A DNA stretch of 63,283 bases, from the NCBI GenBank assembly GCA_002787155.1, contig PCVY01000022.1:29336-92618 (forward strand). The letters run 5' to 3'. The notes under the pieces are model-generated. The model was not told where the DNA came from. It was given only the letters and a program-made list of their open reading frames with translations, and searched no databases. Position 1 is the stretch's first letter; every line of letters begins with the position of its first letter. The translations under genes and the position numbers were made by a program. Source of the DNA: Candidatus Abzuiibacterium crystallinum (GTDB taxonomy: Bacteria > Omnitrophota > Omnitrophia > Omnitrophales > Abzuiibacteriaceae). Positions 7,165 through 26,788 of the stretch are shown here, in pieces.

Positions 7165-7569
7165 TTAATGCGTGGGGTCAGACCCTCCCGGGTCTGACCC
7201 CTTTAATGTTGACAAGAGATCTTGTTCTGTTTTTTGATTACAAGCACTTCGAATGGTGAGTTCGGGCGCTCGTTTGATGCCTGCCGTGTAACTGTACATC
7301 GGAATCGTATCCCACGGACAGTGTTTTGCACACAACGCACAACCAATGCAGCGTTCAATATCCACTTCCACGACTTGCTGGAATTGGGCATGCTCGACAC
7401 CGGGAACAATTTCGATGCAATCAACCGGGCAAAAAACAATACACGCCTCACAACCCGTACAGCCATGCTGATCGATGACTGCCAGCTTAAGAGGTTCTTT
7501 TTTACGCTCAGGTTTCTTTGCAATTAATTCCGGGCGCGGGCCCTTACGAGCAGTGTTTTCGGTTGTCAT
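7165..7569 (-). CDS. 2x[4Fe-4S] ferredoxin-type protein
   Basis: Two CxxCxxCxxxCP motifs (CTGCEACIVFCP, CIGCALCAKHCP). The last ~12 codons (GSDPGGSDPTH) are simply the translation of the 28-nt palindrome, so the true C-terminus is uncertain. It lies 23 nt downstream of ccsA on the same strand. Confidence 0.8.
   Translation of the reverse strand: MTTENTARKGPRPELIAKKPERKKEPLKLAVIDQHGCTGCEACIVFCPVDCIEIVPGVEHAQFQQVVEVDIERCIGCALCAKHCPWDTIPMYSYTAGIKRAPELTIRSACNQKTEQDLLSTLKGSDPGGSDPTH
7174..7201. repeat. 28-nt GC-rich perfect palindrome (REP-like), copy 1 of 2
   Basis: GGGGTCAGACCC-TCCC-GGGTCTGACCCC, a 12-bp stem with a 4-nt loop. An identical 28-mer in the opposite orientation lies at 50426-50453. 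Copy 1 sits between convergent genes and is followed on the plus strand by TTTAATGTT. Confidence 0.85.
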
Positions 7570-7592
7570 AACAAAATAATTGTATCATAAGG

Positions 7593-11103: not shown

Positions 11104-11181
11104 CTGATCGGATACCAGTTCTAAAAGTGCCGGGTTTTGTTTCTGATCGGGTACCAGTTCTAAAAGTGCCGGGTTTTCTTT
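11104..11181. repeat. Tandem direct repeat, 2 x 39 nt
   Basis: CTGATCGG[A/G]TACCAGTTCTAAAAGTGCCGGGTTTT[G/C]TTT occurs at 11104-11142 and 11143-11181, with 2 mismatches. The second unit contains the left 22-bp inverted repeat flanking the IS. Confidence 0.85.
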
Positions 11182-11297
11182 CGCCTACCATTTGACCATC
11201 ACCCAAAACCTGATCATATGAAAAGCTTCCTCCCCTGCGTAGAATAGCAGGCGGAAAAGAAACTAGATCTTGCTGCTCACAGCAAAAGGAGGAAGCC

Positions 11298-12332
11298 ATG
11301 TACACCATTGGTTGCGATCAACATAAATATTTTTGTCAGCTTGCTGTCCTTGACGAAGAAGGAAAAATGATTCAGCAACAAAAACTTTACCACGATGACC
11401 GGGAAACTCTCAAGCGGTATTTCACCTCACTGCCCCCTGGGTCGCAGATGGCTGTTGAAGCTTCGGGATTTGAGTCTTGGTTAACCGATTTCGTTCAGGA
11501 TCTTGGCATTAAGGTTCATTTGAGTCATCCTCTAAAGACCCGAGCCATTGCTGAGGCTAAAATAAAAACAGATAAAGTCGACGCTAAGATCCTCGCCCAA
11601 CTGCTTTACGCCGATCTTCTCCCGAAAGCTTATTTGGCAACCCCCCAGACACGCCGGATCCGCTACTTTTTAAGATTTCGTCTATGTCTCAATCGTTACA
11701 GGAGCAGCTTAAAGAACCGGATCCACTCTTTACTCCATAGCTTAGGGATTCCTGCACCGGCGGTCACCGATCTTTTCGGAGTCAGTGGCCGGCGATTTCT
11801 TGACTCCCTTCAACTCGGCGAAGGATACCAAGAAGCTCTTTTGGGCTATCTCGATTTGCTTGATACTACCGAAGCACGGATTAATTGTCTGAAGAAAAAA
11901 TTAGCCGCCGGCGTCAAAGAAAATCCGGATGCCGAACGGCTAGAAACCATTCCAGGCGTGGGCGTCTTGCTCTCACAGCTCATTCTTGCCGAAATTGCTG
12001 ACATTCAGCGGTTCGCATCTCCCGAACGGCTGTCGTCTTACGCCGGCCTTGTCCCAAGCATTCATCAAAGCGGGAAACGGCTCTATCACGGTCCTTGTCC
12101 GGATCAGGGAAATAAATTCTTACGATGGGCGATGGTCGAAGCTGCTCAAACAGCGGTCCGTAAAGACCCGAGGCTCAAAGATTTCTACGAACGGATTAAA
12201 CGCAAAAAAGGACCACAAAAAGCTATTGTTGCCGCTGCCCGAAAGATGCTTGTGATTGTCTTTCACGTTTTAAAGAAAAAAGAAAACTTTAGATTCTATG
12301 TTTCTCCCAGACAAGTCCGGCAAAGTGCCTGA
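11298..12332 (+). CDS. IS110-family transposase (DEDD/RuvC-like N-domain plus C-terminal transposase_20-type domain)
   Basis: N-terminus YTIGCDQHKYFCQLAVLDEEG...AVEASG. C-terminal block LETIPGVGVLLSQLILAEIADIQRFASPERLSSYAGLVPSIHQSG, typical of IS110/IS116/IS902 transposases. AAAGGAGGAAGCC precedes the ATG. Confidence 0.9.
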   Translation: MYTIGCDQHKYFCQLAVLDEEGKMIQQQKLYHDDRETLKRYFTSLPPGSQMAVEASGFESWLTDFVQDLGIKVHLSHPLKTRAIAEAKIKTDKVDAKILAQLLYADLLPKAYLATPQTRRIRYFLRFRLCLNRYRSSLKNRIHSLLHSLGIPAPAVTDLFGVSGRRFLDSLQLGEGYQEALLGYLDLLDTTEARINCLKKKLAAGVKENPDAERLETIPGVGVLLSQLILAEIADIQRFASPERLSSYAGLVPSIHQSGKRLYHGPCPDQGNKFLRWAMVEAAQTAVRKDPRLKDFYERIKRKKGPQKAIVAAARKMLVIVFHVLKKKENFRFYVSPRQVRQSA

Positions 12333-12461
12333 GCCAAGCGCTCGTTAACCTGATTGGGAAGTCTGGATTCGAATGACGATCATGTGAATATTGACCACGA
12401 ATGGATGAATGAATCTCTTTTAAGTCATTAAATGCTTGACCCGGAGAAGCTTTTCATGGAT

Positions 12462-12483
12462 GGCACTTTTAGAACTGGTACCC
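12462..12483. repeat. Right copy of the 22-bp inverted repeat flanking the IS
   Basis: GGCACTTTTAGAACTGGTACCC is the exact reverse complement of 11149-11170. It is followed by a tandem 11-mer GTACCCGTACA x2 (12478-12499). Confidence 0.85.
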
Positions 12484-12502
12484 GTACAGTACCCGTACAT
12501 AA

Positions 12503-12841
12503 TCAGGACTTGCTTTTATCTACCTCTTCAATGGCTTCTACAATCAGTTCGAAATACCGATCAAGACCGCATTCTGATTCCGAACGAAGCTGGCAGCTGC
12601 CGTCCGGCTCTTGGTTTTTGCAATCATGACAAACTGTCTCGCGGAGCAACTTCACATATTCAGCTAACTCTTTGGCCTTCACGGATTGAACCACTTTAAC
12701 AATATTTTCCAAATACAATTCAACACCGCAATGTTTATCCCCCGTCAAGGTGCAATGGGCATTCTCATGATCGTAATCAATGCAGTGTTCACAAACTTTT
12801 TTACGAACAGCATCGCGATAGCGTTTATAGTCGTCCGGCAT
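12503..12841 (-). CDS. Cysteine-rich hypothetical protein with two tandem 4-Cys modules
   Basis: 112 aa with no signal peptide. There are two repeats: VCEHC-x9-C-x7-CGVELYLENIVKVV and VCHDC-x8-C-x7-CGLDRYFELIVEAI. No family recognised. Its stop codon abuts the right flank of the IS. Confidence 0.6.
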   Translation of the reverse strand: MPDDYKRYRDAVRKKVCEHCIDYDHENAHCTLTGDKHCGVELYLENIVKVVQSVKAKELAEYVKLLRETVCHDCKNQEPDGSCQLRSESECGLDRYFELIVEAIEEVDKSKS

Positions 12842-13075: not shown

Positions 13076-15181
13076 TTAACCCCAGGAAAACTTTGCTTCC
13101 AATGAAACTAACTGAGCGGTGTAGTCCCCTTGTTCTACATTTGAATTCGCCAAATAATAGTAAAGTGCATATTTGGGTTCAAGAACAATGGCATCCGTCA
13201 GATTCCATTTCACTTCAAATTCCAAATCAACTTTGTCAAATTCTGCTCCGAGCGGCAACCCGATCGCAGAGAAATCGTTGAAGTTCCTGGCCTTGGTGTA
13301 AGCAATCGTGTTAGTCAGTGATACTTTCTTGGCCGGCGCATAATTCGCCGTAAAAAGCCACGTGCTGACATCCGCATTGAATTCCGGAACTTGAGCAAGG
13401 GTGGAGAATTCCGCCAGCGGTGTGAAGGTTCTGGCCTGCGTCCGGTTATAAGATGCCATCAGTAAAAGATCCGGCAGCGGCTGAGAAGTCACGTCAAAGA
13501 TGAGCGACTGTGTGCTGTGTCCTGTATCCACAGATGCTTGCGATTGAACGGCGGTCGCAAAATCGGTATCCCGATAAACATACCGCACGGAAGGTTCAAA
13601 GTACTTGGTGAGCGGCAACGCCACCCTGCCCAAATATTCATTCACACGAATGCGCTGGCTATCAAAAAAGGCCGATAAAATGCTGGTTGTGGGTGATTTA
13701 TTAGAGTTATCATAATCGCTTAACTTATTGGTATAACGATAATGTGAAGTCAAGCGAAGCCGCCCAATGGGTGACGAATGGAAGCCGATTGTCCAAACTC
13801 CTTTTTGAATAGAGGTGATGGTTTCACGGTTAAAAATTTCACCGGTGCTTACGCCTCCATCTCCGCCAATGCTATCACGATTTTCTACCAAAGGAATTCT
13901 CTCCTGTGCCAATTCCAAATCAGAATAAACTGCCGTTCTAGGGATGGCAGTGAAGCGAGCAGTAAAGGTTTCGCCCCAGCGTGTGATGGTGCTTTTGGAA
14001 TCGGTAACTTCAAAGCGATTGGGCGTATTATCCGGCGGGTTATCTAATTCGGTATTTTTGGTCGATTCACCGCGGCGGCTTGCTACTTCACCCTTCAATT
14101 TGGCGCCAAAATTAAACCAGTCGGTCGGGAAAAACATCAGGTTTTGCACCCAAATATTAGAATCATATTGAGTTTCGGCTCGTTGATTGAACGAATTCTC
14201 CGAAAAAGAGCCGTTTCGAATGGGGTTCAAGTTTTCATCGTATTCACGTTCATCTTCCCATTCTTGATGTTTGATGGTAGCAAAACGATAACCTGTCGAA
14301 GAAAATATTTTGTCCTTTAAAAACCACTTAGCTACTTGAAAGAAATTGGTGTAGCTTTTTGATTCCGGCTTCTGATGCAATCGAAGGATGTATTTATCTG
14401 TATTGGTCGGATCGCTCTCTGTGGCATAGAAATTTTCTTGCCTGGTTTGATCAATGCGGACCTGTTCCCAATGCTGTTCGCTCTTCACTTCATACCCGTT
14501 CATCGTGTGTTCTGCTTTGAATTTGAACTTATCTGCCACTTCTTTAAGATCAGAAAAAGCGGGCGCAATTTTCCGGCCGGGGTTTGAAGTGCCATAGTCG
14601 GTGACGGTGCCCCAGGTTAAACGTGATTTTGATCCATTTTTAAATTCTCTTTCATAACCGAATGTCAATTCCGGGTAATCCTCCATGCGTAAACCTGCCT
14701 CCACTCCAAAATGCCCAATGTCTAAAGCTAGTTCCTTAGGAGTATCGGTAGCGCGAAGCGGGCTGCCTTCAGACCGGTAACCAACGTATGGATGATAAAC
14801 ACCGCCTGTTTTGTCATAATACTTACGAAATTCCTGGTAATCAAACTTCACATATCCCAGGTTTTTCTTTTTAATCAAGAGAAGACCTTCATACTCATTA
14901 TTGGCGGGAATTGCCTGCGCTTCTAACTCAACACTGACACCATTGGGCAATTTGTAATAAGCTGATAGATTTTTCAAACCACCCGCATAATTATGATTGA
15001 TCCAATGATGTGTGCGAAATTTATCGGCTTCTCCATCCACAAAAATATAGCGGCTGGGCAATAACGTATAGTCCATGTAATTTTCAGATTCATCCGAATC
15101 AGAGGCCATGACAGGGCGAGGTGCGCCTATGAGAATGAAACCCAACGTCACTACGCCTAAAATCCGAATTAGCCTATTCAT
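13076..15181 (-). CDS. Outer-membrane beta-barrel protein, probable porin partner of the adjacent multihaem cytochrome (MtrB/PioB-like by size and context)
   Basis: 701 aa with a signal peptide (…GAPRPVMA/SD). The sequence is rich in alternating aromatic/polar stretches and Y/N/D/T, and the C-terminus is aromatic (…AKFSWG). The gene lies 11 nt downstream of the octahaem cytochrome gene. Confidence 0.65.
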   Translation of the reverse strand: MNRLIRILGVVTLGFILIGAPRPVMASDSDESENYMDYTLLPSRYIFVDGEADKFRTHHWINHNYAGGLKNLSAYYKLPNGVSVELEAQAIPANNEYEGLLLIKKKNLGYVKFDYQEFRKYYDKTGGVYHPYVGYRSEGSPLRATDTPKELALDIGHFGVEAGLRMEDYPELTFGYEREFKNGSKSRLTWGTVTDYGTSNPGRKIAPAFSDLKEVADKFKFKAEHTMNGYEVKSEQHWEQVRIDQTRQENFYATESDPTNTDKYILRLHQKPESKSYTNFFQVAKWFLKDKIFSSTGYRFATIKHQEWEDEREYDENLNPIRNGSFSENSFNQRAETQYDSNIWVQNLMFFPTDWFNFGAKLKGEVASRRGESTKNTELDNPPDNTPNRFEVTDSKSTITRWGETFTARFTAIPRTAVYSDLELAQERIPLVENRDSIGGDGGVSTGEIFNRETITSIQKGVWTIGFHSSPIGRLRLTSHYRYTNKLSDYDNSNKSPTTSILSAFFDSQRIRVNEYLGRVALPLTKYFEPSVRYVYRDTDFATAVQSQASVDTGHSTQSLIFDVTSQPLPDLLLMASYNRTQARTFTPLAEFSTLAQVPEFNADVSTWLFTANYAPAKKVSLTNTIAYTKARNFNDFSAIGLPLGAEFDKVDLEFEVKWNLTDAIVLEPKYALYYYLANSNVEQGDYTAQLVSLEAKFSWG

Positions 15182-15192
15182 AACTTTACCCT

Positions 15193-15984
15193 CTAATATC
15201 TCAAGTGGTCGTCAAAATTTGAACCGTGTACTGCCGTATGACATCGGGCGCTAAAACAGGTGCCCTGACTGATGCGTGATCCGCTGCCGCCATGGCTGGT
15301 ATCAGCCATATTGGGGAAATTGTCCTGCGTATGGCAGCGTAAACATAGATTAGAATCACGCGCCACCAACATCTTGTCACTGATAGACCCGTGCACTTGA
15401 TGGCAACTGGTGCAGCCTTCACGCAGTGCCTCATGCTCGAAGACAAACGGACCTTCTTGATCTTTGTGACACTTAAAGCAAGCTTCGTTCACATCATCAA
15501 TTGTAGTCGCTGACCAGGGACGAACTTCCTGACCATGTGCGTCGTGACAATCCGAACAACTCATTTTGCCTTCCAAAACCGGGTGATGATAAGGCAGGTT
15601 AAATTCCGCACGCTTATCTGTGTGACAGGCAAAACAAATGGTTGGGTCTTTCGCCGGATTAATAATGTGTTTGTCCATTTTACCTTCACCGCCGCCTTGA
15701 TCCACATGCAGACTGCCTGGACCATGACACATTTCACAACCCTGCACTTCATAATTTTCTCCGGGTATGCTGATGCGGGCGTGCGTGCTCAATTTAAATT
15801 CTTTAACTTCTTTTTCATGGCAAGCCTCGCAAGTTTCCATGCCTACGTATTCCGCTCCTTGGAGAGCTACCGTGTGGGCGTTAAGTGCTTTGCGAAGCAT
15901 TTCGGAATCATACTTACATGAAACAAGGCCTAACGTGAAGAAAAGACTGATAATACTAAAGAAGAAGATTGCTTTTGCTTTCAT
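15193..15984 (-). CDS. Octahaem c-type cytochrome, secreted, possibly a lipoprotein
   Basis: Seven CXXCH motifs (CEACH, CEMCH, CFACH, CSDCH, CFKCH, CTSCH, CLRCH) plus one CX4CH (CFSARCH). The signal peptide MKAKAIFFFSIISLFFTLGLVSC ends in a lipobox-like LVSC. The track start at 16008 adds 8 residues before this Met, and neither start has a clear SD. Confidence 0.85.
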   Translation of the reverse strand: MKAKAIFFFSIISLFFTLGLVSCKYDSEMLRKALNAHTVALQGAEYVGMETCEACHEKEVKEFKLSTHARISIPGENYEVQGCEMCHGPGSLHVDQGGGEGKMDKHIINPAKDPTICFACHTDKRAEFNLPYHHPVLEGKMSCSDCHDAHGQEVRPWSATTIDDVNEACFKCHKDQEGPFVFEHEALREGCTSCHQVHGSISDKMLVARDSNLCLRCHTQDNFPNMADTSHGGSGSRISQGTCFSARCHTAVHGSNFDDHLRY

Positions 15985-16120
15985 AGTGTCTGAGTATATA
16001 CAAGACATATGCCAACTTAAAAGTTTTATGAGAAAATTTAGATTTTAAAGTGGTAATTAAAATGAGGAGGGTAAGCGTCAAGTGTCAATCATAGTTTAGA
16101 ATACTTCAAACTGGGTTAAT

Positions 16121-17572
16121 TCACGCAGATGCCTTTTCTGAGGGGGCTGTTTCACCCACTTTTGGATGGTCTTCTTGGCTGTCAATTCCGAACTTTTTCA
16201 GCTTATAACGCAGTGCATCCCGGCCGATTTGAAGCAACCTGGCCGCTTGTGATTGATTGCCGCCAACCGATTCCAGCGTTTGCTCTACTACTCTTTTTTC
16301 TATTTCTTCAAGCGGGATACCAACCAAGCAATTGGTAACCTTTGTTGAATTTGATTTTTGACCCGGGCGCGACTTAAACATGTCTTTAAGCTGACAGCTG
16401 CAATCCAGTTCAACCGGTAAGTGCTCTAATAAGATTTCATTCCCTTGAATCAAAATCATGGCGCGTTCCAAAATATTTTTAACCTCGCGTATGTTTCCCG
16501 GCCAATCATATAAACTCAGCACTTCTTTCACTTCGGGCGCAACACTGGTGATATTCTTTTTAAACTCGCGGTTAAAATGGGCAATAAAAAAACTGATCAG
16601 TTCCGGGATATCTTCACGGCGTTCCCGCAAAGGCGGAAGAAAAATGGGAATCACATTTAAACGATAATATAAATCTTCGCGAAACCGGCCTTCCGACACT
16701 TCTTTCTTAAGATCTTTGTTGGTTGCTGCCACAATTCTGATATCCGATTCCAGCTCTTTGACACCGCCCACGCGGCGAAACTTTTTCTGATCGATTAAAT
16801 GAAGCAACTTGGCCTGCAATTCTTTTTGCATGTCTCCGATTTCATCCAAAAACAAAGTGCCGCCGTTGGCTTCTTCAACCAAGCCGGCGCGCGCCTGCCG
16901 GGCATCTGTGAAAGCCCCTTTTTCATGTCCGAAAAGTTCACTTTCCAATAACGTCGCTGGAAGCGCCGCGCAATTGACGGCCATAAAATGCTGATTTGAC
17001 CGATCGCTGGCGTAATGGATGATCCGTGCAATGAGGTCTTTACCCGTACCGCTTTCTCCCTCCAGCAAAACGGTGCTTGCATTAGAAGCAGCCACTTGCT
17101 TAACCATTTCCAAAATGATTTTCATTTTTTTGCTGACTGCCACAATGTTATCAAAGTCATATTTACCGCGCTCGGTTTGCTCCCATGCCATGACACGTTT
17201 CTTTAAATGACGGGACTCCATAATTTTCTCTAAATTCAACCGAATTTGGTCAAACTCAAACGGTTTATTGATATAAGTGTAAGCCCCTAATTGCATGCAA
17301 GCGACTGCGATTTTTACATCGTCATTAGCGGTAATCATGATGACAGAGGTTTCCGGTTCTCTCCGTCTAATAACCCTGAGAACATCTTTTCCGTTTCCGT
17401 CCGGTAACCGGATATCCAACAATACAATGTCAAAGATATGTTCCTCAAGCAAATCAAATGTCTCCGCCGCGGATTCGGCGGTCAGCACTTCATATCCTTC
17501 TTGCGACAAATCTTTTTTAAGCGACCATCTGATCAATCGCTCATCATCCACAACTAGAATTTTACCTTTCAT
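16121..17572 (-). CDS. Sigma-54-dependent response regulator (NtrC family: REC + AAA+ + Fis-type HTH)
   Basis: Receiver domain (ILVVDDE…LLDIRLPDGNG), Walker A GESGTGKD, ESELFGHEKGAFTDA (a GAFTGA-type sigma-54 contact loop) and a C-terminal HTH (NQSQAARLLQIGRDALRYKLKKFG). Confidence 0.9.
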   Translation of the reverse strand: MKGKILVVDDERLIRWSLKKDLSQEGYEVLTAESAAETFDLLEEHIFDIVLLDIRLPDGNGKDVLRVIRRREPETSVIMITANDDVKIAVACMQLGAYTYINKPFEFDQIRLNLEKIMESRHLKKRVMAWEQTERGKYDFDNIVAVSKKMKIILEMVKQVAASNASTVLLEGESGTGKDLIARIIHYASDRSNQHFMAVNCAALPATLLESELFGHEKGAFTDARQARAGLVEEANGGTLFLDEIGDMQKELQAKLLHLIDQKKFRRVGGVKELESDIRIVAATNKDLKKEVSEGRFREDLYYRLNVIPIFLPPLRERREDIPELISFFIAHFNREFKKNITSVAPEVKEVLSLYDWPGNIREVKNILERAMILIQGNEILLEHLPVELDCSCQLKDMFKSRPGQKSNSTKVTNCLVGIPLEEIEKRVVEQTLESVGGNQSQAARLLQIGRDALRYKLKKFGIDSQEDHPKVGETAPSEKASA

Positions 17573-17614
17573 CGTCTTTCTCTCCTTAAATCAAATTTTC
17601 TTCCGCCAAACCGC

Positions 17615-19201
17615 TTAAACGGTTACCAAATTTTCTGCCTTCATAAATTTTTGAAACGATAGAATAATTTTGGTTCCTTTATCAGGCAAACTCTTTACCT
17701 CAATGGTGCCGTGATGCGCTTCGATGATCCCTTTCACGACAGAAAGCCCGAGTCCCGTTCCTTTTCTTTTCGTACTGTAAAATGCTTCAAAGATCTTTGC
17801 CAGATCGTCCTCCCGTATGCCTTCTCCGGTATCCTCTACTTCAACACGTACAATTTGTTTGGCGCGGTTGGGTTGATCAAAATATTCGCGCTGGTCAATC
17901 GAAATGGTTAACAAACCGCCATGCAGCATGGCATCCGCTGAATTTAAAAATAAATTTAAGAAAACCTGTTCCAACATACCTTGATCTGCTTCCACAATGG
18001 GAACAGATGCGCTTGACATCACTTGCACGCGGATACCTTGCCGTTTCAAACGATGACCCGCCAAATGAAGCGCCGAATGAATCACTTCCAATAAACGGCA
18101 TGATTCCCAATGCGGAGGCGATTGCCGCGCGTAGCGTAGTAGATTATTGACCGTCCGTTCAATTTTTTCAATCTGTGTTTTGACTTCTTCATAGACCGCT
18201 TCATTGCCCGTACTTTTCAACTCATTTCGGAGCGCATGAAAAGCTGAACTAATGGCTGCCAAAGGGTTTTTAATTTCGTGCGAAATATTGGATACAAACT
18301 GACCGATAGATGCCAATCGATTGGACTGCGCTAACTCATGCCTATGCTGCCGGCTGATTCGATTTTGTGCCATTTGGATCCCATGAATCATGGTGTTAAA
18401 ACTCTTGGCTAACCGCCTGAGTTGTGGATCTTCGCGGATGCTCGTGCGAACATCCAACTCTCCTTGCTCGGCTCTTTCCATGACTTGCATAAGTTTGTTA
18501 AGCGGCCTCTTCACAATCCGGTGAACCAACCATTGAATGAGCAGCGCGATAAAGAAGATTAAAATGACGCCCAGGCAAATAAATAAAATATTGTTGGAGA
18601 CGAACCGTTGGTAAATCGATGATAAAGGAATAAAAAGTTCTATGCCGTTGATGCGGTTTCCGGTTTCGTCCCGACACCAAGGGCAAGTGGCATTGATTTT
18701 GATTGGTTGAATAATATGCAATCTCTCTTTGATGCCTTGACCGACAAACTCCGTAAAAGCATTGTCTTGCGTCACACGGTTAGTTTGTCCGGACAGAACG
18801 GTGGCCTGCCTGCCCAACTGTTCCGGTGAAGAAGAAAAGGTAATGAGACCATCCTCATTGAATGCATTAATCTCCTGTACGTCGAAATTTTGCTTGTCAT
18901 AACCGGTTTTTAAAAACCGATCAATGTCTTCGGGCTGCGCTGTCTCATCTAAAAGAATCTCGATTAATTTAGATTTGATTAATTGTGCATGATAAAGCGC
19001 TGTCGTGATGGATGTCTCCGCAATCCGTTGTTGGGATATATTCATCAGTAAGAAAGTACCAAAGCCAACCGTCAAACAAACGATGATGCTGACTGCCCCA
19101 ACCAATTTAACGGTAAGAGATTGCTGGCTAAACCATTTCCAAAGTTTCAGCTGTCGGCGGGTTTTGAAGAAGAGGAAAAATTTTTTCTTTAGCATTGCCA
19201 T
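17615..19201 (-). CDS. Sensor histidine kinase (two TM helices, periplasmic sensor, HAMP, HisKA, HATPase_c)
   Basis: H-box SHEIKNPLAAI, N-box FLNLFLNSADAM, G1 VEDTGEGI, G2 GTGLGLSV, and a HAMP segment after TM2. The track start at 19264 is probably too early; ATG at 19201 (MAMLKKKFF) sits just before TM1. Confidence 0.85.
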   Translation of the reverse strand: MAMLKKKFFLFFKTRRQLKLWKWFSQQSLTVKLVGAVSIIVCLTVGFGTFLLMNISQQRIAETSITTALYHAQLIKSKLIEILLDETAQPEDIDRFLKTGYDKQNFDVQEINAFNEDGLITFSSSPEQLGRQATVLSGQTNRVTQDNAFTEFVGQGIKERLHIIQPIKINATCPWCRDETGNRINGIELFIPLSSIYQRFVSNNILFICLGVILIFFIALLIQWLVHRIVKRPLNKLMQVMERAEQGELDVRTSIREDPQLRRLAKSFNTMIHGIQMAQNRISRQHRHELAQSNRLASIGQFVSNISHEIKNPLAAISSAFHALRNELKSTGNEAVYEEVKTQIEKIERTVNNLLRYARQSPPHWESCRLLEVIHSALHLAGHRLKRQGIRVQVMSSASVPIVEADQGMLEQVFLNLFLNSADAMLHGGLLTISIDQREYFDQPNRAKQIVRVEVEDTGEGIREDDLAKIFEAFYSTKRKGTGLGLSVVKGIIEAHHGTIEVKSLPDKGTKIILSFQKFMKAENLVTV

Positions 19202-19375
19202 TTGACGAACGCCTCGGTTCTTAAGAGACTTGGGCAAGCTGAGGAAGCCTTGCCTTCGTCTCACCGAAGGCTACAAGCCTCTCCCGAAATGCCTGAAAGG
19301 CTGATTCTATCATGAGGAAATGCCTTGGGGAAAGGTCAAAAACACCTACTTTGGCGGCTCGGAAAAGAGGTATTC

Positions 19376-20809
19376 TTAAGAGGGATTTTGTTTGAGATCG
19401 TCATCCGTTCTTTCTTCTTCTTTGGTAATGAGGCCTGTTTTCATGCTCCAATTCATCGGATAGTGATCAGGGTCAAAAATCGTAAAATAAAAGTGCCAAA
19501 CAATAATCGCAAGCGTTGCTAAAACTGCTTCATAAAAATGAATGGTAAGCGCCACATCCAAAATCCACTTGGGGAAATAACGCATGGTAAAATCTTCGAA
19601 TGTCATCAAAATGCCCGTGGCAATCATGACAACGGAGCCCCATACCAATGCCCAGTATTCCATTTTTTCAATGTAATTATAGCGTTGAAATTTTGGTTTC
19701 TCTTTTATTTTTCCCAGATTATATTTCATCAACTGAGTAAAATCTTTTGCATCCTTTTTTCTGAAAAAGAATGCTTTCAGTTGTTTCCTGCCTCGTTCCG
19801 TGAATAATAAAAAGAAAATATGATAAAGAGCTAATAAAGTAAAGAGGGCTGCCGCAAACCGGTGTACCACACCGCGCCAATCAAAATTAAAATGACCCAG
19901 TGTAAACGGAAATGCCCACCAGGCATTCGGCCACTTCAGCGCAAAACCCGTATAAGCTAGTACGCAAAAAGTGAGGGTCAGGATAGAATGTTGCATCCTC
20001 TCCACTTTGGTAAAACGCAGTTCCGTTGCTTCTGTTTTTTTGCGGAGATAGTGAAGCCTTAATTTCCGCAGAAAATCCAAGCCGTTATGAAGAAGCATGC
20101 CGCCGATGGTGAGAAAAATAACGGTTAAATAAACGGCGGTAATGTAATAAATAATTCTATCCTGCGTGGGTGAAGGCGCTAAATGGACGGAGCCTTTTGC
20201 TAATTGATCACCCGCATTGGGATGACACTTCCCGCATGTTTTGGACAAATTGCGTTCATTGACTGACGAATTCGGATCACTGGAAGGTAAAATATTATGA
20301 GCGCCGTGGCAACTCGCGCAATTGGCAACGGTGGTCACGCCATATTGATTGGCCATGCCATGATAACTTTCCAAATAGGTCTTAACACTATCGGACGGCA
20401 ACCGGTATTTGGTCGTTATTTTTTCTGCTGCATGGCAATGTCCGCAAGTTTTAACGGATAAAGTGGTTGAATAAACGGACGATTCCGGATCTTTAGCGCC
20501 GCGGATGGTATGCTCTCCGTGGCAATCGGTGCAAACCGGCGTTTCTAATTTGCCGGCCCCGGCAGCTTTGCCGTGAATGCTCCGCTCGTAAGTTTTAAGT
20601 ACGTTTTCATGGCATTTCCCGCATGTTTTGGGAATATTATTGCGATAAATTTTAGACTCCAGATTGGTGGGTGCGTGCAGGTCGTGCGATCCGTGACAAT
20701 CGGTGCAAGTAGCGGCAGACACCAATCCTTTATCGGTAAATGCCCGGCCGTGAACGGTTTCCGAATAGGATTTCAAAGGTGCTTTCTCAAGCAAATCAAA
20801 AGGTGCCAT
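19376..20809 (-). CDS. C-terminal fragment of a CbcL-like cytochrome: 6 haem c motifs plus a membrane b-type cytochrome (HydC/FdnI-like) domain
   Basis: CTDCH, CGKCH, CTDCH, CGHCH, CASCH, CGKCH, followed by a 4-5 TM domain with ERMQHS…H…H spacing typical of Ni/Fe-hydrogenase/FdnI b-type subunits. It has no signal peptide of its own. Its ATG lies inside the A8 run that ends the upstream fragment. Confidence 0.8.
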   Translation of the reverse strand: MAPFDLLEKAPLKSYSETVHGRAFTDKGLVSAATCTDCHGSHDLHAPTNLESKIYRNNIPKTCGKCHENVLKTYERSIHGKAAGAGKLETPVCTDCHGEHTIRGAKDPESSVYSTTLSVKTCGHCHAAEKITTKYRLPSDSVKTYLESYHGMANQYGVTTVANCASCHGAHNILPSSDPNSSVNERNLSKTCGKCHPNAGDQLAKGSVHLAPSPTQDRIIYYITAVYLTVIFLTIGGMLLHNGLDFLRKLRLHYLRKKTEATELRFTKVERMQHSILTLTFCVLAYTGFALKWPNAWWAFPFTLGHFNFDWRGVVHRFAAALFTLLALYHIFFLLFTERGRKQLKAFFFRKKDAKDFTQLMKYNLGKIKEKPKFQRYNYIEKMEYWALVWGSVVMIATGILMTFEDFTMRYFPKWILDVALTIHFYEAVLATLAIIVWHFYFTIFDPDHYPMNWSMKTGLITKEEERTDDDLKQNPS

Positions 20810-21294
20810 TTTTTTTCGTCTTCATGACATTTGGCGCAAGTTTCCGCGATGTTGACACGATTGACCGGCGAGTCTTCGCGGCGAGAACCGAGAATTTGGT
20901 GGGGTTCCCCGTGACAATCAAGACATGCCGCTGCCGGCAGGCCGGATTTCAGAGCAATCCCGTGATCGGATGCGGTATAAATATCCGATTCCAATCGGTG
21001 ACATTCACCGCATTTGACCGGAACTAATTTATCCTCGTGCGGGATTTCATGAATGTCACTGTGACAAGAAGTGCATAAATGCCCGCCATGCGCAGAACGG
21101 GAAAATTTTTCCGCATGCATGGTATCGTGGCAGAGAAAGCAATCATCATTTTGAATTTTTGGCGAAGGCGCGGGATGGTTTGCTGTTGATGCCGCTGGAG
21201 CAGACGGCATGCCGGTATTATCAGCTTTCGTTTGGAAAGAGCATGCTAATGTCAGACAGATAGTTAAAAGGAATTTTCTTCGCAACAACATCAT
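20773..21294 (-). CDS. N-terminal fragment of the same CbcL-like cytochrome: signal peptide plus 5 haem c motifs
   Basis: Signal peptide MMLLRRKFLLTICLTLA…, then CFLCH, CTSCH, CGECH, CLDCH, CAKCH. After the A8 run (20809-20816) the frame runs 12 more codons to a stop and overlaps the downstream fragment by 37 nt. Confidence 0.8.
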   Translation of the reverse strand: MMLLRRKFLLTICLTLACSFQTKADNTGMPSAPAASTANHPAPSPKIQNDDCFLCHDTMHAEKFSRSAHGGHLCTSCHSDIHEIPHEDKLVPVKCGECHRLESDIYTASDHGIALKSGLPAAACLDCHGEPHQILGSRREDSPVNRVNIAETCAKCHEDEKKWHLLICLRKHL

Positions 21295-21318
21295 GGTTAA
21301 CCGTTCGGTTGATTAAAA

Positions 21319-22833
21319 TTAATCTGCACCGCCTGTATGACAATCGTAACAGGCCATTTCTTTCCACATTTCTTCAATATCTTCCGGATGTTTGAATTCA
21401 AGCCCATCAACAGAAGTTTCGGGCATATCAGGCGGACCTTGCGCAATAATACTATGACAACTTTTACAATCATGGGAAATCGCATTGCCGGTTTCGGTTT
21501 TGTGTTTGCCGTCATGACATCGAAAACATCCCGGAAAAATCATGTGCCCAATGTGATTGGGGTATTCTTTCCATGAAACGTTCATTTCTGGGAAAAAGTT
21601 GTGCTCGTAAATACGCGCTACTTCATCAATGGAAGATTTTAAACTGACTTGTTTCCCCGTCCAAACTTCCGGGTATTCTTTTTGGTAAAATTCCATTAAT
21701 TTGCTTCTGATTTTTGTCACGGCTTCTTCTTTGGTCTCATATTCTCCCGTCAGCGCTTTCACCGCTTCACGTTTGATATACGGCAGCGACCGGTCAATTG
21801 CTTCAAAAGCCATGGCTTCATTCACTGCCACCGAAGGCGATTTATAATTGTGACTGGGACGATTGTGACAATCCATGCAATCCATCCGGCGAAGCTCGCC
21901 TTTGGGGGGATTTTCAGACGAGTATTCTGATTCTTCATCCACAAATACTTGTTCCGTTCCGTCAGGACCAATCATCTTTATCCACGGAATCTTTTCTCTT
22001 TTTTCATCGGCCGCGATGTAATACATCTTGTTATTAATGTTCATATGCCAGTGAATGCCGCCCCGCTTGCCAAATTGCGGCGCTCCGCCGCCGACAAACA
22101 TCAGCATTCTTGTTTGCCAAGGTGTATTGTTTTCATCCGGAAGAAAATATTCATAATCTTGCTCAATGGCGCCGAAAAATTTTTGCGGCCAATGACATTG
22201 CTCACAAGTTTCCTGCGCCGGACGTAAATTTTTAACCGGGGTCTCAATCGGGCGTGAAAATTTATTGGCAATTACTGAATAAATCTGGTAACTCCCCGAT
22301 AGTTTTGACTTAATGAACCAGTCAGCTCCAGGTCCGATATGACATTCGGCACAAGTCACGCGGGCGTGGGGTGAATGATGATAAGCCACATACTCAGGCT
22401 CCATCACGACATGGCACATTTTGCCGCAAAAGGTAACCGACTCGGTAAATTCATAAGCGCGAAAAGCGCCAAACATAGAAAAAATTAAAAATGCGGTCAC
22501 GATGGCAATGCTGGTATAAGCCCACTTCTGGTGGAGCGGATTGTTAAAATCGATATGAGGAAATCTGCGGACGTAGCCCCTTTTTTGACGTTTGGATCTT
22601 TCACGAAACGCACCAATCGGAATCAGCAAAAGACCGATGGTAAGGAAAATGGGAAGGATGAGGTAAGTCACAGCTCCCAAATAGGGATTATGTTCTTTGC
22701 CGAGAAAATCGAGAGTGACAAAAACTAGGATCACGGCAAAAAAGACGCTGGACAGAATAGCACCGATCACACTTAACCAATTTTGGAAAAGACTTCTTGG
22801 TTGATTTTTCGGCTCAGGCTGATTGTTCACCAA
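21319..22833 (-). CDS. Heptahaem inner-membrane cytochrome, ImcH-like (NapC/NirT-related)
   Basis: N-terminal TM helices, then CGKMCH (CX3CH), CAECH, CEQCH, CMDCH, CFRCH, CKSCH, CYDCH. The start is not ATG (TTG at 22833 or GTG at 22830, with AAGGA upstream). Confidence 0.7.
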   Translation of the reverse strand: MVNNQPEPKNQPRSLFQNWLSVIGAILSSVFFAVILVFVTLDFLGKEHNPYLGAVTYLILPIFLTIGLLLIPIGAFRERSKRQKRGYVRRFPHIDFNNPLHQKWAYTSIAIVTAFLIFSMFGAFRAYEFTESVTFCGKMCHVVMEPEYVAYHHSPHARVTCAECHIGPGADWFIKSKLSGSYQIYSVIANKFSRPIETPVKNLRPAQETCEQCHWPQKFFGAIEQDYEYFLPDENNTPWQTRMLMFVGGGAPQFGKRGGIHWHMNINNKMYYIAADEKREKIPWIKMIGPDGTEQVFVDEESEYSSENPPKGELRRMDCMDCHNRPSHNYKSPSVAVNEAMAFEAIDRSLPYIKREAVKALTGEYETKEEAVTKIRSKLMEFYQKEYPEVWTGKQVSLKSSIDEVARIYEHNFFPEMNVSWKEYPNHIGHMIFPGCFRCHDGKHKTETGNAISHDCKSCHSIIAQGPPDMPETSVDGLEFKHPEDIEEMWKEMACYDCHTGGAD

Positions 22834-22919
22834 TATTCCTTAAAAAAGTAGAAAGAAAAACTCTGTCATTAATTTCTTAATGTTGTCATTACATATATCG
22901 AATCAAAAAAGATTTCTCT

Positions 22920-23474
22920 TCAACCTTTTGGCACTGGATGCTTAATCTTCTCCCAGCTTTCATGGAAATCGAAAGATTTGAAGGACGGAGATTCCGGGTT
23001 GTGGCACTTCTGGCAGGTGGCTTCATTGGGGATAACTAAGCCTGCGGCAATCGCGGCATCCTGATCTTCCATCACACTCTTTTTCATGTAATCTTTCCCC
23101 GGACCATGACAAGATTCACATGAAACCCCTTCTTCGACAGGGACAAAACTGGTGACCATTTCTTCGCTAAATCCGTAAGCCGTGGAATGACATTTCAAGC
23201 ATTTACCGCTTGTTTGAGGATCATCAACGCCTAGTTTAGCGCCCGCTTCTTTGGCTTCCGGCGTTCCCAAAGTTTCGATCGCTTTGGCATGTTTAGAATT
23301 TAACCAAATACCATACTGATCACCTTGTTCCGGTTTTTTGTGACAAATGGAACATTTTTTAGCCCCTATAAATTCATGGGCAAACGATTCCGCCATGGCT
23401 GGCGGTGCGAACCACAAAAAAACGGTGAGTACGATAAAGCCTTGCATCCATCCAAAATAAAGTTTTTCTTTCAT
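22920..23474 (-). CDS. Tetrahaem c-type cytochrome (cytochrome c554-like), secreted
   Basis: Signal peptide ending PPAMA/ES. CSICH, CLKCH, CESCH, CQKCH. 184 aa. Confidence 0.85.
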   Translation of the reverse strand: MKEKLYFGWMQGFIVLTVFLWFAPPAMAESFAHEFIGAKKCSICHKKPEQGDQYGIWLNSKHAKAIETLGTPEAKEAGAKLGVDDPQTSGKCLKCHSTAYGFSEEMVTSFVPVEEGVSCESCHGPGKDYMKKSVMEDQDAAIAAGLVIPNEATCQKCHNPESPSFKSFDFHESWEKIKHPVPKG

Positions 23475-23512
23475 GGCATTCTCCTTGTTAGAATTAATGA
23501 TGCTTCATTTGA

Positions 23513-24682
23513 TCATTTAACTTCTGCATCTGTCAACTTAGCCATATGCTCAGCCGCGGTTCCTGCATGCGGTAAACCGTAAACATCGAAGTAATAGGTT
23601 TTCCCAAAAAGTTGCCGTTCCGTTTCAGACAAATAACCTACGACCCCAAAAATAAATAATGACAATAACACCAGGATGCAAAACCCAACCGCAAAAGGAC
23701 GCTTGCGCGGATCCCGTTCTTTGTTTCTATCCAGAAAAGGCCACAAGAACAAAAAGATCGGCGCTAAGGTAACGACAAAAATACCGGCTAACTTTGGGAA
23801 ATATTTTAGAACTTGGTAGAAAGGCAGGAAGTACCATTCCGGCTTGATGGCGTGAGGTGTCGTGAGCGGATCTGCTTTTTCACCAAGATCAAATGGCGCC
23901 AAAATAGCCAACGTAATTAAAATACCAAGTAAAATATAGAAAACAATACCTTCCTTTAAAACATGGGTCGGAAAGAAAGGCGTGCCGTGTGCTTTATCCA
24001 CTTCTTTTTCCTCATCGACTCTCTCCATGGTTGCAACCCCTTGCAAACGAACCAAAAATAAGTGAATAAGGACAAGTAGAACAAGGAGCCACGGCAAAAT
24101 AATCACGTGAATCACAAAAAATCTAGAGAGAGTTTCACTGCCGACAGACGGTCCGCCGCGCATGAGTGTTCTAATCCATTCACCCACAATAGGCACTGAA
24201 CCGGCCACTTCGGTGCCCACGGTAGTTGCCCAGTAGGCCAATTGATTCCAAGGCAGCAAATAACCTGTAAAACCAAAAATCATGGTGAAAATAAACAAGA
24301 AGACGCCAAAAATCCAAGTGACTTCGCGCGGTTTTTTGTAAGAGCCTGTGATATACGTCCTTAGCATATGAAGAAAAACAACAATGACCATTAAATTAGC
24401 CCCCCAAGCATGCACCTGGCGGTATAACCAACCCATATAGGGTTTGGTCATGATAAATTTGACGCTCTCGAAAGCTTCGTTAACAGTGGGACGGTAATAC
24501 ACCAACAACAAGATGCCTGTTACAACTTGACTTAAAAATAAGAAAAGCGACATGCTGCCTAAAGTGTGGAACCAGCCAACATTATGCGGCAAGGGTTTCT
24601 TGAGTTGTTTTTCAACCGGCCCGCGCATTTTATCGACATCAAAACGCTGTCGTACCCAGGCATCTACCAAACGTTTAATCAT
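23513..24682 (-). CDS. Cytochrome b of a Rieske/cyt b complex (unsplit: b6-like plus subunit-IV-like parts in one chain)
   Basis: N-terminal GWFHTLGSMSLFLFLSQVVTGILL…YRQVHAWGANLMV (haem b His ligands) and C-terminal PEWYFLPFYQ motif. 389 aa. Confidence 0.9.
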   Translation of the reverse strand: MIKRLVDAWVRQRFDVDKMRGPVEKQLKKPLPHNVGWFHTLGSMSLFLFLSQVVTGILLLVYYRPTVNEAFESVKFIMTKPYMGWLYRQVHAWGANLMVIVVFLHMLRTYITGSYKKPREVTWIFGVFLFIFTMIFGFTGYLLPWNQLAYWATTVGTEVAGSVPIVGEWIRTLMRGGPSVGSETLSRFFVIHVIILPWLLVLLVLIHLFLVRLQGVATMERVDEEKEVDKAHGTPFFPTHVLKEGIVFYILLGILITLAILAPFDLGEKADPLTTPHAIKPEWYFLPFYQVLKYFPKLAGIFVVTLAPIFLFLWPFLDRNKERDPRKRPFAVGFCILVLLSLFIFGVVGYLSETERQLFGKTYYFDVYGLPHAGTAAEHMAKLTDAEVK

Positions 24683-24722
24683 GATTTAATTCCTTTGTAC
24701 CTCAAAAAAACCGGCGATCATT

Positions 24723-25184
24723 TCATAACTTCACAAAAATTTTTCCATCAACTACTCTGACTGTGTGACCAACCAAAGATTTAGGCGGCGGTCCCGAAAT
24801 CACCCTGCCTTCAACATCAAAAAACCCGGCATGACAGGGGCATTCAATGAGGCGTTTATCAGCACTCCATTCAACCAAACAACCCAAATGCGTACACACA
24901 GCCGAATAAGCCTTAAAACTCTGAGGTGTTCTTAAAAGAATCATCGGACTTTCCCCGATCGAAATCTTTTTTGCTCCCCAAACTGCAAGATCATCTTCAC
25001 GGCCCACTTCCACCATACCGCCGACAGGCCCCCTTCTTGTCACGGGCCATAAATAGGTAAGCGCCGGCAAAAACATACCCAAAAGCGTTGCCAAAAACCC
25101 GCCTTTAAGAATCCAATCTAAAAAATGACGTCTTGACGTTTCCGGCTGTTCTGCATGATTTGTTTTCATATCGGACACGGTCAC
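24723..25184 (-). CDS. Rieske [2Fe-2S] protein
   Basis: Twin-arginine-like N-terminus (TSRRHFLDW). Cluster boxes CTHLGC and CPCHAG. GTG start. Confidence 0.9.
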   Translation of the reverse strand: MTVSDMKTNHAEQPETSRRHFLDWILKGGFLATLLGMFLPALTYLWPVTRRGPVGGMVEVGREDDLAVWGAKKISIGESPMILLRTPQSFKAYSAVCTHLGCLVEWSADKRLIECPCHAGFFDVEGRVISGPPPKSLVGHTVRVVDGKIFVKL

Positions 25185-25195
25185 CTACTCCGTTC

Positions 25196-26473
25196 TTAAT
25201 CTTTTTGATTTTTTAACTGCTTATATTTTCGGTAAAGCACCAAAACCATGATCACGATAAATACCCAAATCGGAACCAGCATCCACTGTCTTTGCTTATG
25301 GCTCAGCCGCTTATGGCGTATCGAGCGTTCAATCTCATCCGTGCTTTTTACAATAGCATCATGCCGCTCCGTCAGAAAATGATTGTTCAAGGTATGCTGG
25401 ACCGACTTAATTTCGATGAGGTGCGTTTTCACTTCTTCCAAGTTAGCCGCTTCTTCCTCCACAAAAAATCCTTCGATGGCTGCCTGTTTGACCGTTCCTT
25501 TTGTTTTTTCAAACGCTTGCTCGGCGTTATTTAATTCGCGTTCGATGGCTTGGCCAAGTTGATATTCGGTTGTGCCCGTTGCGTGACAATTTAAACACGC
25601 CTTCTCGTACAACGCGGCGGTGGGATGTTGAACATCATGAAATCCGTGACAAGACGTACACTCCGAGAATTTTCCTTCCACCATGGCCGCCGCATGCGGA
25701 CTTTCCAGAAAATATTTTTTCTCATTCACATGACATTTACCGCAGGTCGCTCCCAGGTCTTTTACGCCGGGCGGCACGGCCCCATGACTGCCGTGGCAAG
25801 CCGCACAATTGGCAACCGCAAGATTTCCTTTTTCAAAAAGGGCTTTGCCGTGAACGCTTTCACGGTACTGATCAAACACATCTGTCGGATGATGATAAGG
25901 TTCCATTAAACGTTCATTGCCGTGGCAATGGTTGCAGGTTTTTGGAACGTTTGATGGGTAAACCGGGCTGTTGGGATCACTCACCGCGATCACATCGTGA
26001 TAACCGTGACAATCCATACAGGCTGCGGCTTTCATATCATGATCGACCATCACGCGTTTGCCGTGTGTGCTGGTGAGGTAGCGCGCCAATTGATCGGTTC
26101 GAATGCCATAGGGATTCATAAATTCGACATTGGCATGACAGTTACCGCAACGCTGGACAGCTTGGTCTTTTTCAGGAACACCGATGTAACCGGTTTCCGG
26201 CCCTTTCGCAAGCGCTTGATCTGCTTGCGCCGGATCTCCCCCATGACAATCTTGGCAGGCAACACCATTTCGGCTATGGATGCTTGCCTGCATTTCTTCC
26301 CAGTAATCCGAATGGCAAGCAATGCATTGATTTTCATTGTCAGTATTGGCAAATAAAGGGTGGGTGGAAAGAAAGAGAAGAATGATCAGGATGCCAAAAT
26401 AGACAAAAAAACTCCCTCTCTCATTGGTAATGAAATGAGCAGCCTGATGATTCAAATTGCGATGATGACTCAC
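25196..26473 (-). CDS. Nonahaem c-type cytochrome with N-terminal signal/anchor and C-terminal TM helix
   Basis: CIACH, CQDCH, CGNCH, CMDCH, CNHCH, CAACH, CGKCH, CTSCH, CLNCH. C-terminal WMLVPIWVFIVIMVLVLY. GTG start with GGAG 4-5 nt upstream. First gene of the co-directional cluster. Confidence 0.85.
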   Translation of the reverse strand: MSHHRNLNHQAAHFITNERGSFFVYFGILIILLFLSTHPLFANTDNENQCIACHSDYWEEMQASIHSRNGVACQDCHGGDPAQADQALAKGPETGYIGVPEKDQAVQRCGNCHANVEFMNPYGIRTDQLARYLTSTHGKRVMVDHDMKAAACMDCHGYHDVIAVSDPNSPVYPSNVPKTCNHCHGNERLMEPYHHPTDVFDQYRESVHGKALFEKGNLAVANCAACHGSHGAVPPGVKDLGATCGKCHVNEKKYFLESPHAAAMVEGKFSECTSCHGFHDVQHPTAALYEKACLNCHATGTTEYQLGQAIERELNNAEQAFEKTKGTVKQAAIEGFFVEEEAANLEEVKTHLIEIKSVQHTLNNHFLTERHDAIVKSTDEIERSIRHKRLSHKQRQWMLVPIWVFIVIMVLVLYRKYKQLKNQKD

Positions 26474-26788
26474 TTAGCTCCGTGATCTTTGTTACTTATG
26501 TTCATGTCTTATGCCAAGTTTCTGTATTTCATAAGAAAAAACAATTATTTTTTCAATCACCTAATTTGTCCGGGGTAAAATGATCTGTTTTCCATTTTCC
26601 CCTTTCAAAAATAGACTTGTGGGATTTGTGGTCTATCAAAACTGGGTGAAATAGCGCAATGGATCTAACCAACTGCTCCAACTCACCTAACCCGTTTTCT
26701 CATCATTTTTTTAAGAAACCGCTTTGACCGTCATAAAAACAGCCAAAGTTTTGTGCGCTGTTGAATCAGTGCGCAAAAGATAAGCCTG

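Follow-up and report, generated by a model that had tools for sequence, protein, structure and literature searches.

The question raised by this locus is whether one run of genes in Candidatus Abzuiibacterium crystallinum (Omnitrophota) could carry electrons all the way between the quinone pool and the outside of the cell, and whether such a run is peculiar to this organism. The locus is a block of genes on the minus strand, positions 13076-26473, of a 63,283-nt stretch of contig PCVY01000022.1 (GenBank assembly GCA_002787155.1, contig positions 29,336 to 92,618); this whole stretch, at its full length, is called the window. The block is a new combination of parts that are all of known kinds, with a divergent outer-membrane pair at its end, and related arrangements recur in other genomes. 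We see an even chance that it works as a self-contained, envelope-spanning electron-transfer island through which electrons flow outward.

An open reading frame (ORF) scan with translation gave eleven minus-strand ORFs, which represent the following ten genes, in order of transcription:

25196-26473, minus strand: nonahaem c-type cytochrome, 425 aa, nine CXXCH motifs (multihaem Pfam families)
24723-25184, minus strand: Rieske 2Fe-2S protein with a Tat signal (PF00355, 46.5 bits)
23513-24682, minus strand: cytochrome b, 389 aa, of the fused b6 and subunit IV type (PF00033, 196.9 bits; PF00032, 72.2 bits)
22920-23474, minus strand: secreted tetrahaem cytochrome, c554-like, 184 aa, four CXXCH motifs (PF13435, 65.7 bits)
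21319-22833, minus strand: heptahaem inner-membrane cytochrome of the ImcH family, 504 aa, three transmembrane segments, one CX3CH and six CXXCH motifs
19376-21294, minus strand: gene of the CbcL/MtoC/MtrH family, 11-haem c domain and dihaem b-type membrane domain, frameshifted
17615-19264, minus strand: sensor histidine kinase with two transmembrane segments, a periplasmic domain and HAMP, HisKA and HATPase domains (hydropathy and Pfam)
16121-17572, minus strand: NtrC-type response regulator with receiver, sigma-54 activation AAA+ and HTH_8 domains (Pfam matches of the identical gene in L081/L082)
15193-15984, minus strand: octahaem MtrA/DmsE-like cytochrome, predicted lipoprotein, seven CXXCH motifs and a last motif CFSARCH (CX4CH)
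13076-15181, minus strand: 701-aa protein modelled as an outer-membrane beta-barrel of 26 strands, MtrB-like in fold and without a plug

A preliminary description of the window had listed ten co-directional genes separated by gaps of about 10-110 bp and had counted 39 haem-binding motifs by eye. The ten genes were reproduced, the spacers between them measured 11-112 nt, and the recount returned exactly the same 37 CXXCH, one CX3CH and one CX4CH motifs. The domain calls for the block genes were all backed by Pfam and NCBIfam. The base composition of the block did not differ from that of its flanks, the named close homologues of its proteins all came from Candidatus Omnitrophica/Omnitrophota, and Rfam and tRNA scans of the whole window found no RNA genes.

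The connection across the outer membrane would be provided by the products of the last two genes. The octahaem protein matched chain A (MtrA) of PDB entry 6R2Q (6r2q_A; phmmer, E = 8.5e-37) in two stretches covering residues 18-265, which supports its earlier assignment to an outer-membrane conduit. BLASTP against a bona fide DmsE-family decahaem cytochrome from a Nitrospirota metagenome-assembled genome (MAG) gave 3e-32, the alignment containing a gap of 49 aa in which two central haems are lost. Instead of the ten haems of the MtrA/DmsE/MtoA/PioA family, eight motifs were found, and eight were also present in seven of nine relatives examined, the other two having seven. The longest ORF (15193-16008, 271 aa) extends further upstream, but the second Met (15984) is the most likely start of translation: it is where the orthologues begin, and the longer ORF runs over a conserved promoter-like motif. 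The preliminary description had asked for a lipoprotein check, and from this start a lipobox, LVSC, is indeed predicted; it is conserved in the orthologues (LVSC, LTSC, LSSC, ISSC), as is the terminal CX4CH. By these alignments the protein is a shortened lipoprotein homologue of MtrA (PDB 6R2Q), from which it differs in having eight haems rather than ten, CX4CH as its last motif and a lipoprotein signal. In outline, the arrangement is also like Geobacter OmaB-OmbB-OmcB, where an octahaem cytochrome and a porin-like protein lie next to a transcription factor (PMC4282303). The outer-surface dodecahaem lipoprotein of that system is not present here, and the octahaem protein is related to the MtrA/DmsE and GSU2203 models.

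The barrel gene starts 11 nt after the octahaem gene and its product contains no Cys motifs. An AlphaFold2 model built from a 34-sequence alignment (pLDDT 86.6) showed 26 strands and no plug, and a Foldseek search of the PDB returned MtrB (6r2q_B) as the top match, with TM-scores of 0.63/0.67; TonB-dependent receptors came next at about 0.4. Sequence searches of the PDB, with the single sequence as well as with the 34-sequence profile, yielded no match; it is solely the fold search that ties the barrel to MtrB. A match to PF11854 was found in one of the 34 family members (3.5e-7). The outer-membrane barrel of the preliminary description thus stands as a modelled fold with MtrB as its nearest structure, although sequence models do not recognise it.

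The family to which the barrel belongs is large: a full-library profile search collected 877 representatives at E <= 1e-3 (clusters at 50% identity). In four distant members (P0265, P0254, P0282 and P0305) one or two PSCyt1 monohaem domains are fused to the N-terminus of the barrel, and the family is therefore marked independently as cytochrome-associated. These fusions recall the fused cytochrome-porin Cyc2, with a barrel length here similar to that of the modelled 26-strand one. The pair in the block is like MtrAB, MtoAB and PioAB in that an MtrA-type cytochrome is encoded beside a 26-strand, plug-less barrel, and, as in MtoAB and PioAB, there is no MtrC. Unlike MtrB and PioB, however, the barrel has no detectable sequence similarity to the models of these proteins and forms a separate family. 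This large family would be missed by current MtrB/PioB models and by iron-gene annotation tools built on models of this kind, and metagenomic surveys may therefore undercount the potential for extracellular electron transfer.

On the inner-membrane side, the 504-aa protein fits, as far as its motifs and hydropathy tell, the definition of the ImcH family (three transmembrane segments, CX3CH by the third segment followed by six CXXCH, ~495-519 aa; Zhong and Shi 2018, PMC6295460). It shares with Geobacter sulfurreducens ImcH (GSU3259) three N-terminal transmembrane segments, a CX3CH after the third, six CXXCH motifs, a length of ~505 aa and a NapC/NirT-like region. The segments predicted from hydropathy are at residues 22-40, 58-76 and 106-124 (13-35, 45-67 and 100-122 in GSU3259). 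The first motif, CGKMCH, is at residue 136, after the third segment, and CXXCH follows at 161, 210, 319, 436, 456 and 495. The resulting spacing of 25, 49, 109, 117, 20 and 39 residues compares with 24, 49, 106, 117, 20 and 38 in GSU3259 (507 aa), the latter values being those of the published motif table. The NapC/NirT-like region (residues 106-194) scored 42 bits with PF03264 (cut-off 24.1), and a sequence search of the PDB gave at best a marginal match to NrfH. The ImcH-like call of the preliminary description is well supported by this layout. Three ImcH and three CbcL homologues had already been listed for Omnitrophica (Zhong and Shi 2018, PMC6295460). In Geobacter, unlike here, imcH lies apart from cbcL and from any outer-membrane conduit.

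The next gene combines a multihaem c domain with a HydC/FdnI-type b domain, as do the members of the CbcL/MtoC/MtrH family (GSU0274; mtoABCD of Gallionella and Dechloromonas). The b domain scored 72.1 bits with PF01292 and 66 bits with TIGR01583 (FdnI/HydC-type). A crude hydropathy scan marked four segments in the membrane domain, where the family has about six, and histidines are present there. Unlike CbcL, with its nine haem motifs, the protein has eleven, its gene is frameshifted, and ImcH and a Rieske/cytochrome b pair are encoded alongside; eleven motifs are also found in a 649-aa CbcL-family member from Omnitrophica (PMC6295460). CbcL-family genes, namely mtoC and mtrH, are known to cluster with mtoAB and mtrAB (PMC6295460). 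The reading frame is split over two overlapping ORFs, 20773-21294 (173 aa, five CXXCH) and 19376-20809 (477 aa, six CXXCH and the membrane domain), at this site:

20809-20816, minus strand: frame break, A8 homopolymer in A_AAA_AAA phase (sequence)

When one A was restored, a 640-aa ORF resulted that is colinear with intact orthologues of 635, 622, 638 and 651 aa, in agreement with the frameshifted CbcL-like gene of the preliminary description. The window is 100% identical to k141_903548 (92.8 kb), a contig of the groundwater-type ENA assembly ERZ27293413, and, a 30-nt indel aside, to contig PFGO01000007.1 of NCBI GCA_002781965.1. The A8 run is the same in both of these, and owing to the one-base deletion neither assembly holds a single intact reading frame. 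Because both public assemblies contain the A8 run, we regard the frameshift as probably genuine. The site could be that of a pseudogene, a phase-variable tract or a recoding signal. A -1 ribosomal slip or the transcriptional insertion of an A at the run would give …HEDEKKMAPF…, colinear with the orthologues.

A third route to the quinones is suggested by the first genes of the block. The nonahaem protein has a hydrophobic segment at residues 22-40 (N-terminal signal or anchor) and a C-terminal helix at residues 396-414; it is presumed to be the cytochrome c subunit of a Rieske/cytochrome b module, anchored at its C-terminus like cytochrome c1 or f. The Rieske protein contains the binding box CTHLGC...CPCH and the Tat motif RRHFL. 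Cytochrome b contains the Qo motif PEWY at residue 281 and gave its best scores on the b6 and ExtP models, the latter score (NCBIfam, 224.5 bits) being below the cut-off of 290. The tetrahaem protein, with its cleavable signal, is a candidate for the periplasmic relay, and its gene adjoins imcH in 25 of the 80 loci surveyed below.

Loci from other genomes are referred to by L numbers. The preliminary description had implied that the locus was unique, which is not supported. The identical ten-gene order was found in L085, and in L001, L086 and L088 the genes lie together with rearrangements. For a wider survey, the 80 best ImcH loci, each from a different species, were examined with 10-kb flanks. 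CbcL homologues were neighbours of ImcH in 55 of these, a Rieske protein, cytochrome b and a nonahaem-like cytochrome occurred in 32, and 26 loci had both. MtrA-like cytochromes were less common within the 10 kb (9/80). The loci came from Ignavibacteriota, Bacteroidota, KSB1, Verrucomicrobiota, Zixibacteriota, Latescibacteria, Nitrospirota, Acidobacteriota and Omnitrophota. The locus is thus a recurrent mosaic and not a one-off; the functional reading of the preliminary description was largely right, and uniqueness was overstated.

According to the 2018 survey, mtrAB was adjacent to no imcH (PMC6295460). This statement is outdated, because in L037 the genes immediately before CbcL and ImcH encode a bona fide DmsE-family decahaem cytochrome and an equally bona fide MtrB/PioB protein, and L038 has a pair of the GSU2203/GSU2204 type beside ImcH and CbcL. 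Contrary to that survey, imcH does therefore occur beside MtrAB-type conduits.

Another published partial precedent is that of the Geobacter genes extHIJKLMNOPQS, where a porin, multihaem cytochromes, a Rieske protein and cytochrome b occur together (PMC5877670). Compared with this cluster (Cbc6, GSU2940-2930), the cytochrome b of the block resembles ExtP, although under the cut-off. The ext cluster is without ImcH or CbcL, and its porin ExtI is small (45 kDa) and not MtrB-like; the block, for its part, encodes no rhodanese and no selenoprotein cytochrome. Literature searches produced no direct report of a locus with ImcH, CbcL, Rieske protein and porin, nor of such conduits in Omnitrophota. 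A preprint on peat was rejected as a precedent, as it describes other, non-ImcH clusters, and so were PCC3 and PCC4 of iron oxidisers, which are different systems. Screens for iron genes do flag Omnitrophica MAGs (one study).

Comparison with the relatives also showed that the unit extends beyond the barrel gene. In the window this region contains the following features:

12503-12841, minus strand: 112-aa Cys-rich cytoplasmic protein, following the barrel gene (orthologue at the same position in L085)
11143-12489, plus strand: IS110-family element with 28-nt inverted ends (transposase domains and inverted repeats)
7593-11038, minus strand: ResB and CcsA, System II cytochrome c maturation (PF05140, PF01578)

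The 112-aa protein, which could act as an accessory factor in metal or redox binding, has no signal peptide and no family match and contains two CxxC-x(10)-C-x(6)-CG repeats; in the closest relatives it is always encoded behind the barrel gene. Behind that gene, L085 has one for a 113-aa Cys-rich protein and then ResB, and L088 has ResB and CcsA directly; in L086, ResB and CcsA lie inside the block. Because the 112-aa gene and ResB/CcsA belong to the block in the relatives, the conserved unit comprises about 13 genes with its own maturation system. The IS110 element (transposase 11298-12332; inverted ends 11143-11170 and 12462-12489, the left end tandemly duplicated as a 39-nt repeat) has inserted between the 112-aa gene and resB (11104-12489), a site that is uninterrupted in L085 and L088. 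Near 12451-12512 there is a 30-nt difference between the NCBI and ENA assemblies.

Promoter-like motifs were found upstream of the first gene and of the octahaem gene:

26501-26517, minus strand: sigma-54-like motif TTGGCAT-N5-ATGAA, 27 nt before the first gene (pattern scan)
15999-16015, minus strand: sigma-54-like motif TTGGCAT-N5-TTGTA, its TGGCA core starting 30 nt before the ATG at 15984

For the first of these, chance alone would give about 0.9 matches over the whole window with both strands counted, and it is also present upstream of the first cluster gene in L086 (3042) and L001 (9261). The second was found by aligning upstream regions, with TTGGCAY-N5-TTGNA as the shared pattern and the core at -30/-31 from the ATG. 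All four genomes in which the kinase and regulator genes lie upstream have it (the window, L085, L086 and L001), and none of the five in which they do not (L088-L091, L073). We infer that the motifs are sigma-54-type promoters driven by the encoded regulator, and their conservation supports the dedicated two-component regulator proposed earlier. A strict sigma-54 scan (TGGCAC-N5-TTGCA, <=2 mismatches, with GG and GC required) gave no relevant match in the block, and scans for sigma-70 promoters and intrinsic terminators did no better than with shuffled sequence; the single sensibly placed hairpin (26722-26748) lies between the oxidase cluster and the block. The conserved motifs and the paired kinase offer a handle on the signal that turns such conduits on. 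In the periplasmic domain of the kinase, residues ~193-197 (18674-18688, minus strand) read CPWCR, where L086 and L001 have the c-type haem motifs CMMCH/CMRCH and L085 shows a deletion. Redox sensing through a c-type haem may have been the ancestral function of this domain, since lost here.

Taken together, the parts suggest the following route. ImcH-type, CbcL-type (frameshifted here) and Rieske/cytochrome b modules would pass electrons back or forth between quinones and the haems of the periplasm, and the secreted tetrahaem cytochrome would relay them across the periplasm. The lipid-anchored octahaem MtrA homologue, threaded through the 26-strand MtrB-like barrel, would then take them across the outer membrane. 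In the outward direction quinol would be oxidised and an extracellular or soluble high-molecular-weight acceptor reduced. The sensor kinase and the NtrC-type regulator would switch the block on from sigma-54-type promoters before the first gene and the MtrA-like gene, and the downstream ResB and CcsA would mature the 39 haem sites.

Hardware of this type is known to be reversible, and we agree with the preliminary description that sequence cannot decide in which direction electrons flow. In Geobacter, potential-tuned outward respiration follows the pattern of three quinone-linked modules in parallel. There, ImcH and CbcL oxidise quinol on behalf of extracellular acceptors, and the 2018 survey recorded ImcH homologues in Fe(III) reducers only (PMC6295460). 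Because of these roles and the three parallel modules, outward flow is favoured as slightly more likely than inward flow.

Several observations weigh against an outward-conducting island. The octahaem protein falls below the cut-offs of both NCBIfam models (171.8 bits with TIGR03508, DmsE family, cut-off 192.2; 184.8 bits with the GSU2203-family model, cut-off 325). The barrel has no Pfam or NCBIfam match, PF11854 and TIGR03509 included, and its hhalign comparison with a bona fide MtrB/PioB protein gave a probability of 1.7%. Neither the block nor the rest of the window encodes a surface cytochrome of the MtrC/OmcA type, and the Fe(II)-oxidising MtoAB and PioAB systems are likewise without one. 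At the octahaem-gene motif the -24 element TTGGCAY is conserved, but in three of the four genomes the -12 element lacks the canonical GC, having T or A after TTG, and the predicted leader would be only ~4 nt. Finally, the copy in this strain may be partly inactive, because CbcL is frameshifted and the insertion sequence separates ResB and CcsA from the rest.

The octahaem/barrel pair was also found in a second genomic context. In three other Omnitrophota contigs, L089, L090 and L091, no quinol oxidoreductase is encoded near the pair; its genes come immediately after those for NirK, a cupredoxin-like protein and a small membrane protein in L089 and L090, and of these three L091 keeps only the last. 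The NirK of L090 scored 324.8 bits with TIGR02376, above the equivalog cut-off. The NirK-linked copies of the pair form a more distant clade (36-40% identity) without lipobox. The window has a copy of the cupredoxin-like gene (35059-35748, minus strand); its product, a 229-aa secreted protein in which a cupredoxin-like domain (HNVH…CDVHPWM) is joined to a CarboxypepD_reg domain, is 36% identical to that cupredoxin-like protein and carries an amicyanin-type CxxHxxM loop. CoxII, encoded ~8 kb upstream of the block, carries the same cupredoxin-like module at its N-terminus, which suggests that electrons enter the aa3 oxidase by way of blue copper rather than cytochrome c (both genes within 33568-35748, minus strand).

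A further idea is that the octahaem cytochrome ending in CX4CH and the unrecognised barrel family form a portable 'electron port' that can serve quinone gateways or, alternatively and directly, cupredoxin and NirK or aa3; we consider it speculative and doubtful. If true, a phylum largely regarded as one of host-dependent nanobacteria would harvest electrons from extracellular donors or partner cells. Inward flow through the same hardware is a possible reading of the block itself, albeit an unlikely one. An extracellular donor (for instance dissolved Fe(II), a shuttle in reduced form, or another cell acting as partner or host) would feed the octahaem/barrel pair, and electrons would pass downhill to the periplasmic cupredoxin and aa3 (NirK in the relatives) and uphill via CbcL, ImcH and Rieske/cytochrome b into the quinones, where they would supply reducing power. 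A two-component conduit without surface cytochrome is what MtoAB and PioAB have (PMC6295460), and the CbcL family takes in MtoC of Fe(II) oxidisers. The location beside NirK and cupredoxin in L089 and L090, away from quinol oxidoreductases, points the same way, as do the cupredoxin-like protein of the window and the CoxII fusion; however, the NirK-linked copies are distant and without lipobox. Moreover, ImcH has so far been tied only to quinol oxidation in metal reducers, and the three parallel modules fit the Geobacter outward pattern. The adjacent aa3 oxidase cluster, which the preliminary description had named as the destination of inward flow, is present in the window, but this adjacency is not kept in L085, L086, L088 or L001 and was for that reason down-weighted as evidence for inward flow.

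Two further explanations concern the unity and the state of the block. It is improbable, in our estimate, that the island is decaying in this strain, with CbcL a pseudogene, IS110 uncoupling the maturation genes and the pathway complete in relatives only; this view overlaps with the other readings and does not exclude them. The frameshift is present in two assemblies (PFGO01000007.1 and k141_903548) while the orthologues are intact, IS110 sits exactly in the spacer that is uninterrupted in L085 and L088, and the CXXCH His of the kinase sensor, retained in L086 and L001, has been lost. Yet both assemblies may stem from overlapping read sets, and the A_AAA_AAA phase allows slippage or insertion of an A to give the orthologue-colinear product. 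The other nine genes are intact, the motifs are conserved, and ImcH and the Rieske/cytochrome b module could carry the flux alone. Very improbable is a combination of two unrelated functions, in which a first operon, from the nonahaem cytochrome to CbcL, would serve periplasmic or soluble acceptors, possibly in chemistry of the selenite/tellurite or nitrogen-oxide type, which has been suggested for the ext genes of Geobacter, and the kinase-to-barrel unit would be independent. Such a division would agree with the general scarcity of MtrA-like genes near ImcH, CbcL and Rieske/cytochrome b, with the pair standing alone in L089-L091, with the b6 and ExtP affinity of cytochrome b, and with the separate promoter-like motifs, which imply two transcription units. 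It is difficult to reconcile with the same rare motif before both units in three genomes, with the conserved gene order of L085 and the rearranged but undispersed genes of L086, L001 and L088, and with independent lineages that join MtrAB-type pairs to ImcH/CbcL (L037, L038, L044, L052 and L073); in addition, no catalytic reductase is encoded in the block. The block provides a concrete scheme, open to testing, of how Omnitrophota could exchange electrons with their surroundings; this groundwater phylum is widespread and uncultivated, and little is known of its energy metabolism.

Some neighbouring genes deserve mention. A second Rieske/cytochrome b complex is encoded upstream of the oxidase genes (35785-42042, minus strand); its cytochrome b is split and without PEWY or PDWY. 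Encoded along with this complex are a HEAT-repeat protein and a membrane-anchored protein of 951 aa, which has eight CXXCH motifs and includes domains of the SoxX-like and cbb3 types. In L086/L087 (Omnitrophica RIFCSPLOWO2_12_FULL_44_17), a fourth quinone-linked module lies between the tetrahaem gene and imcH (7232-9965), consisting of a cytochrome c, a 4Fe-4S protein and an NrfD-like membrane protein, and a 930-aa CbcL paralogue is encoded upstream on the opposite strand. The window also contains two giant minus-strand ORFs, one of 2019 aa (42244-48303) without a Pfam match and one of 2558 aa (55556-63232) with internal glutamate-dehydrogenase-like and phosphoglucomutase-like domains; in L001 the cluster is likewise flanked by an ORF of 2436 aa.

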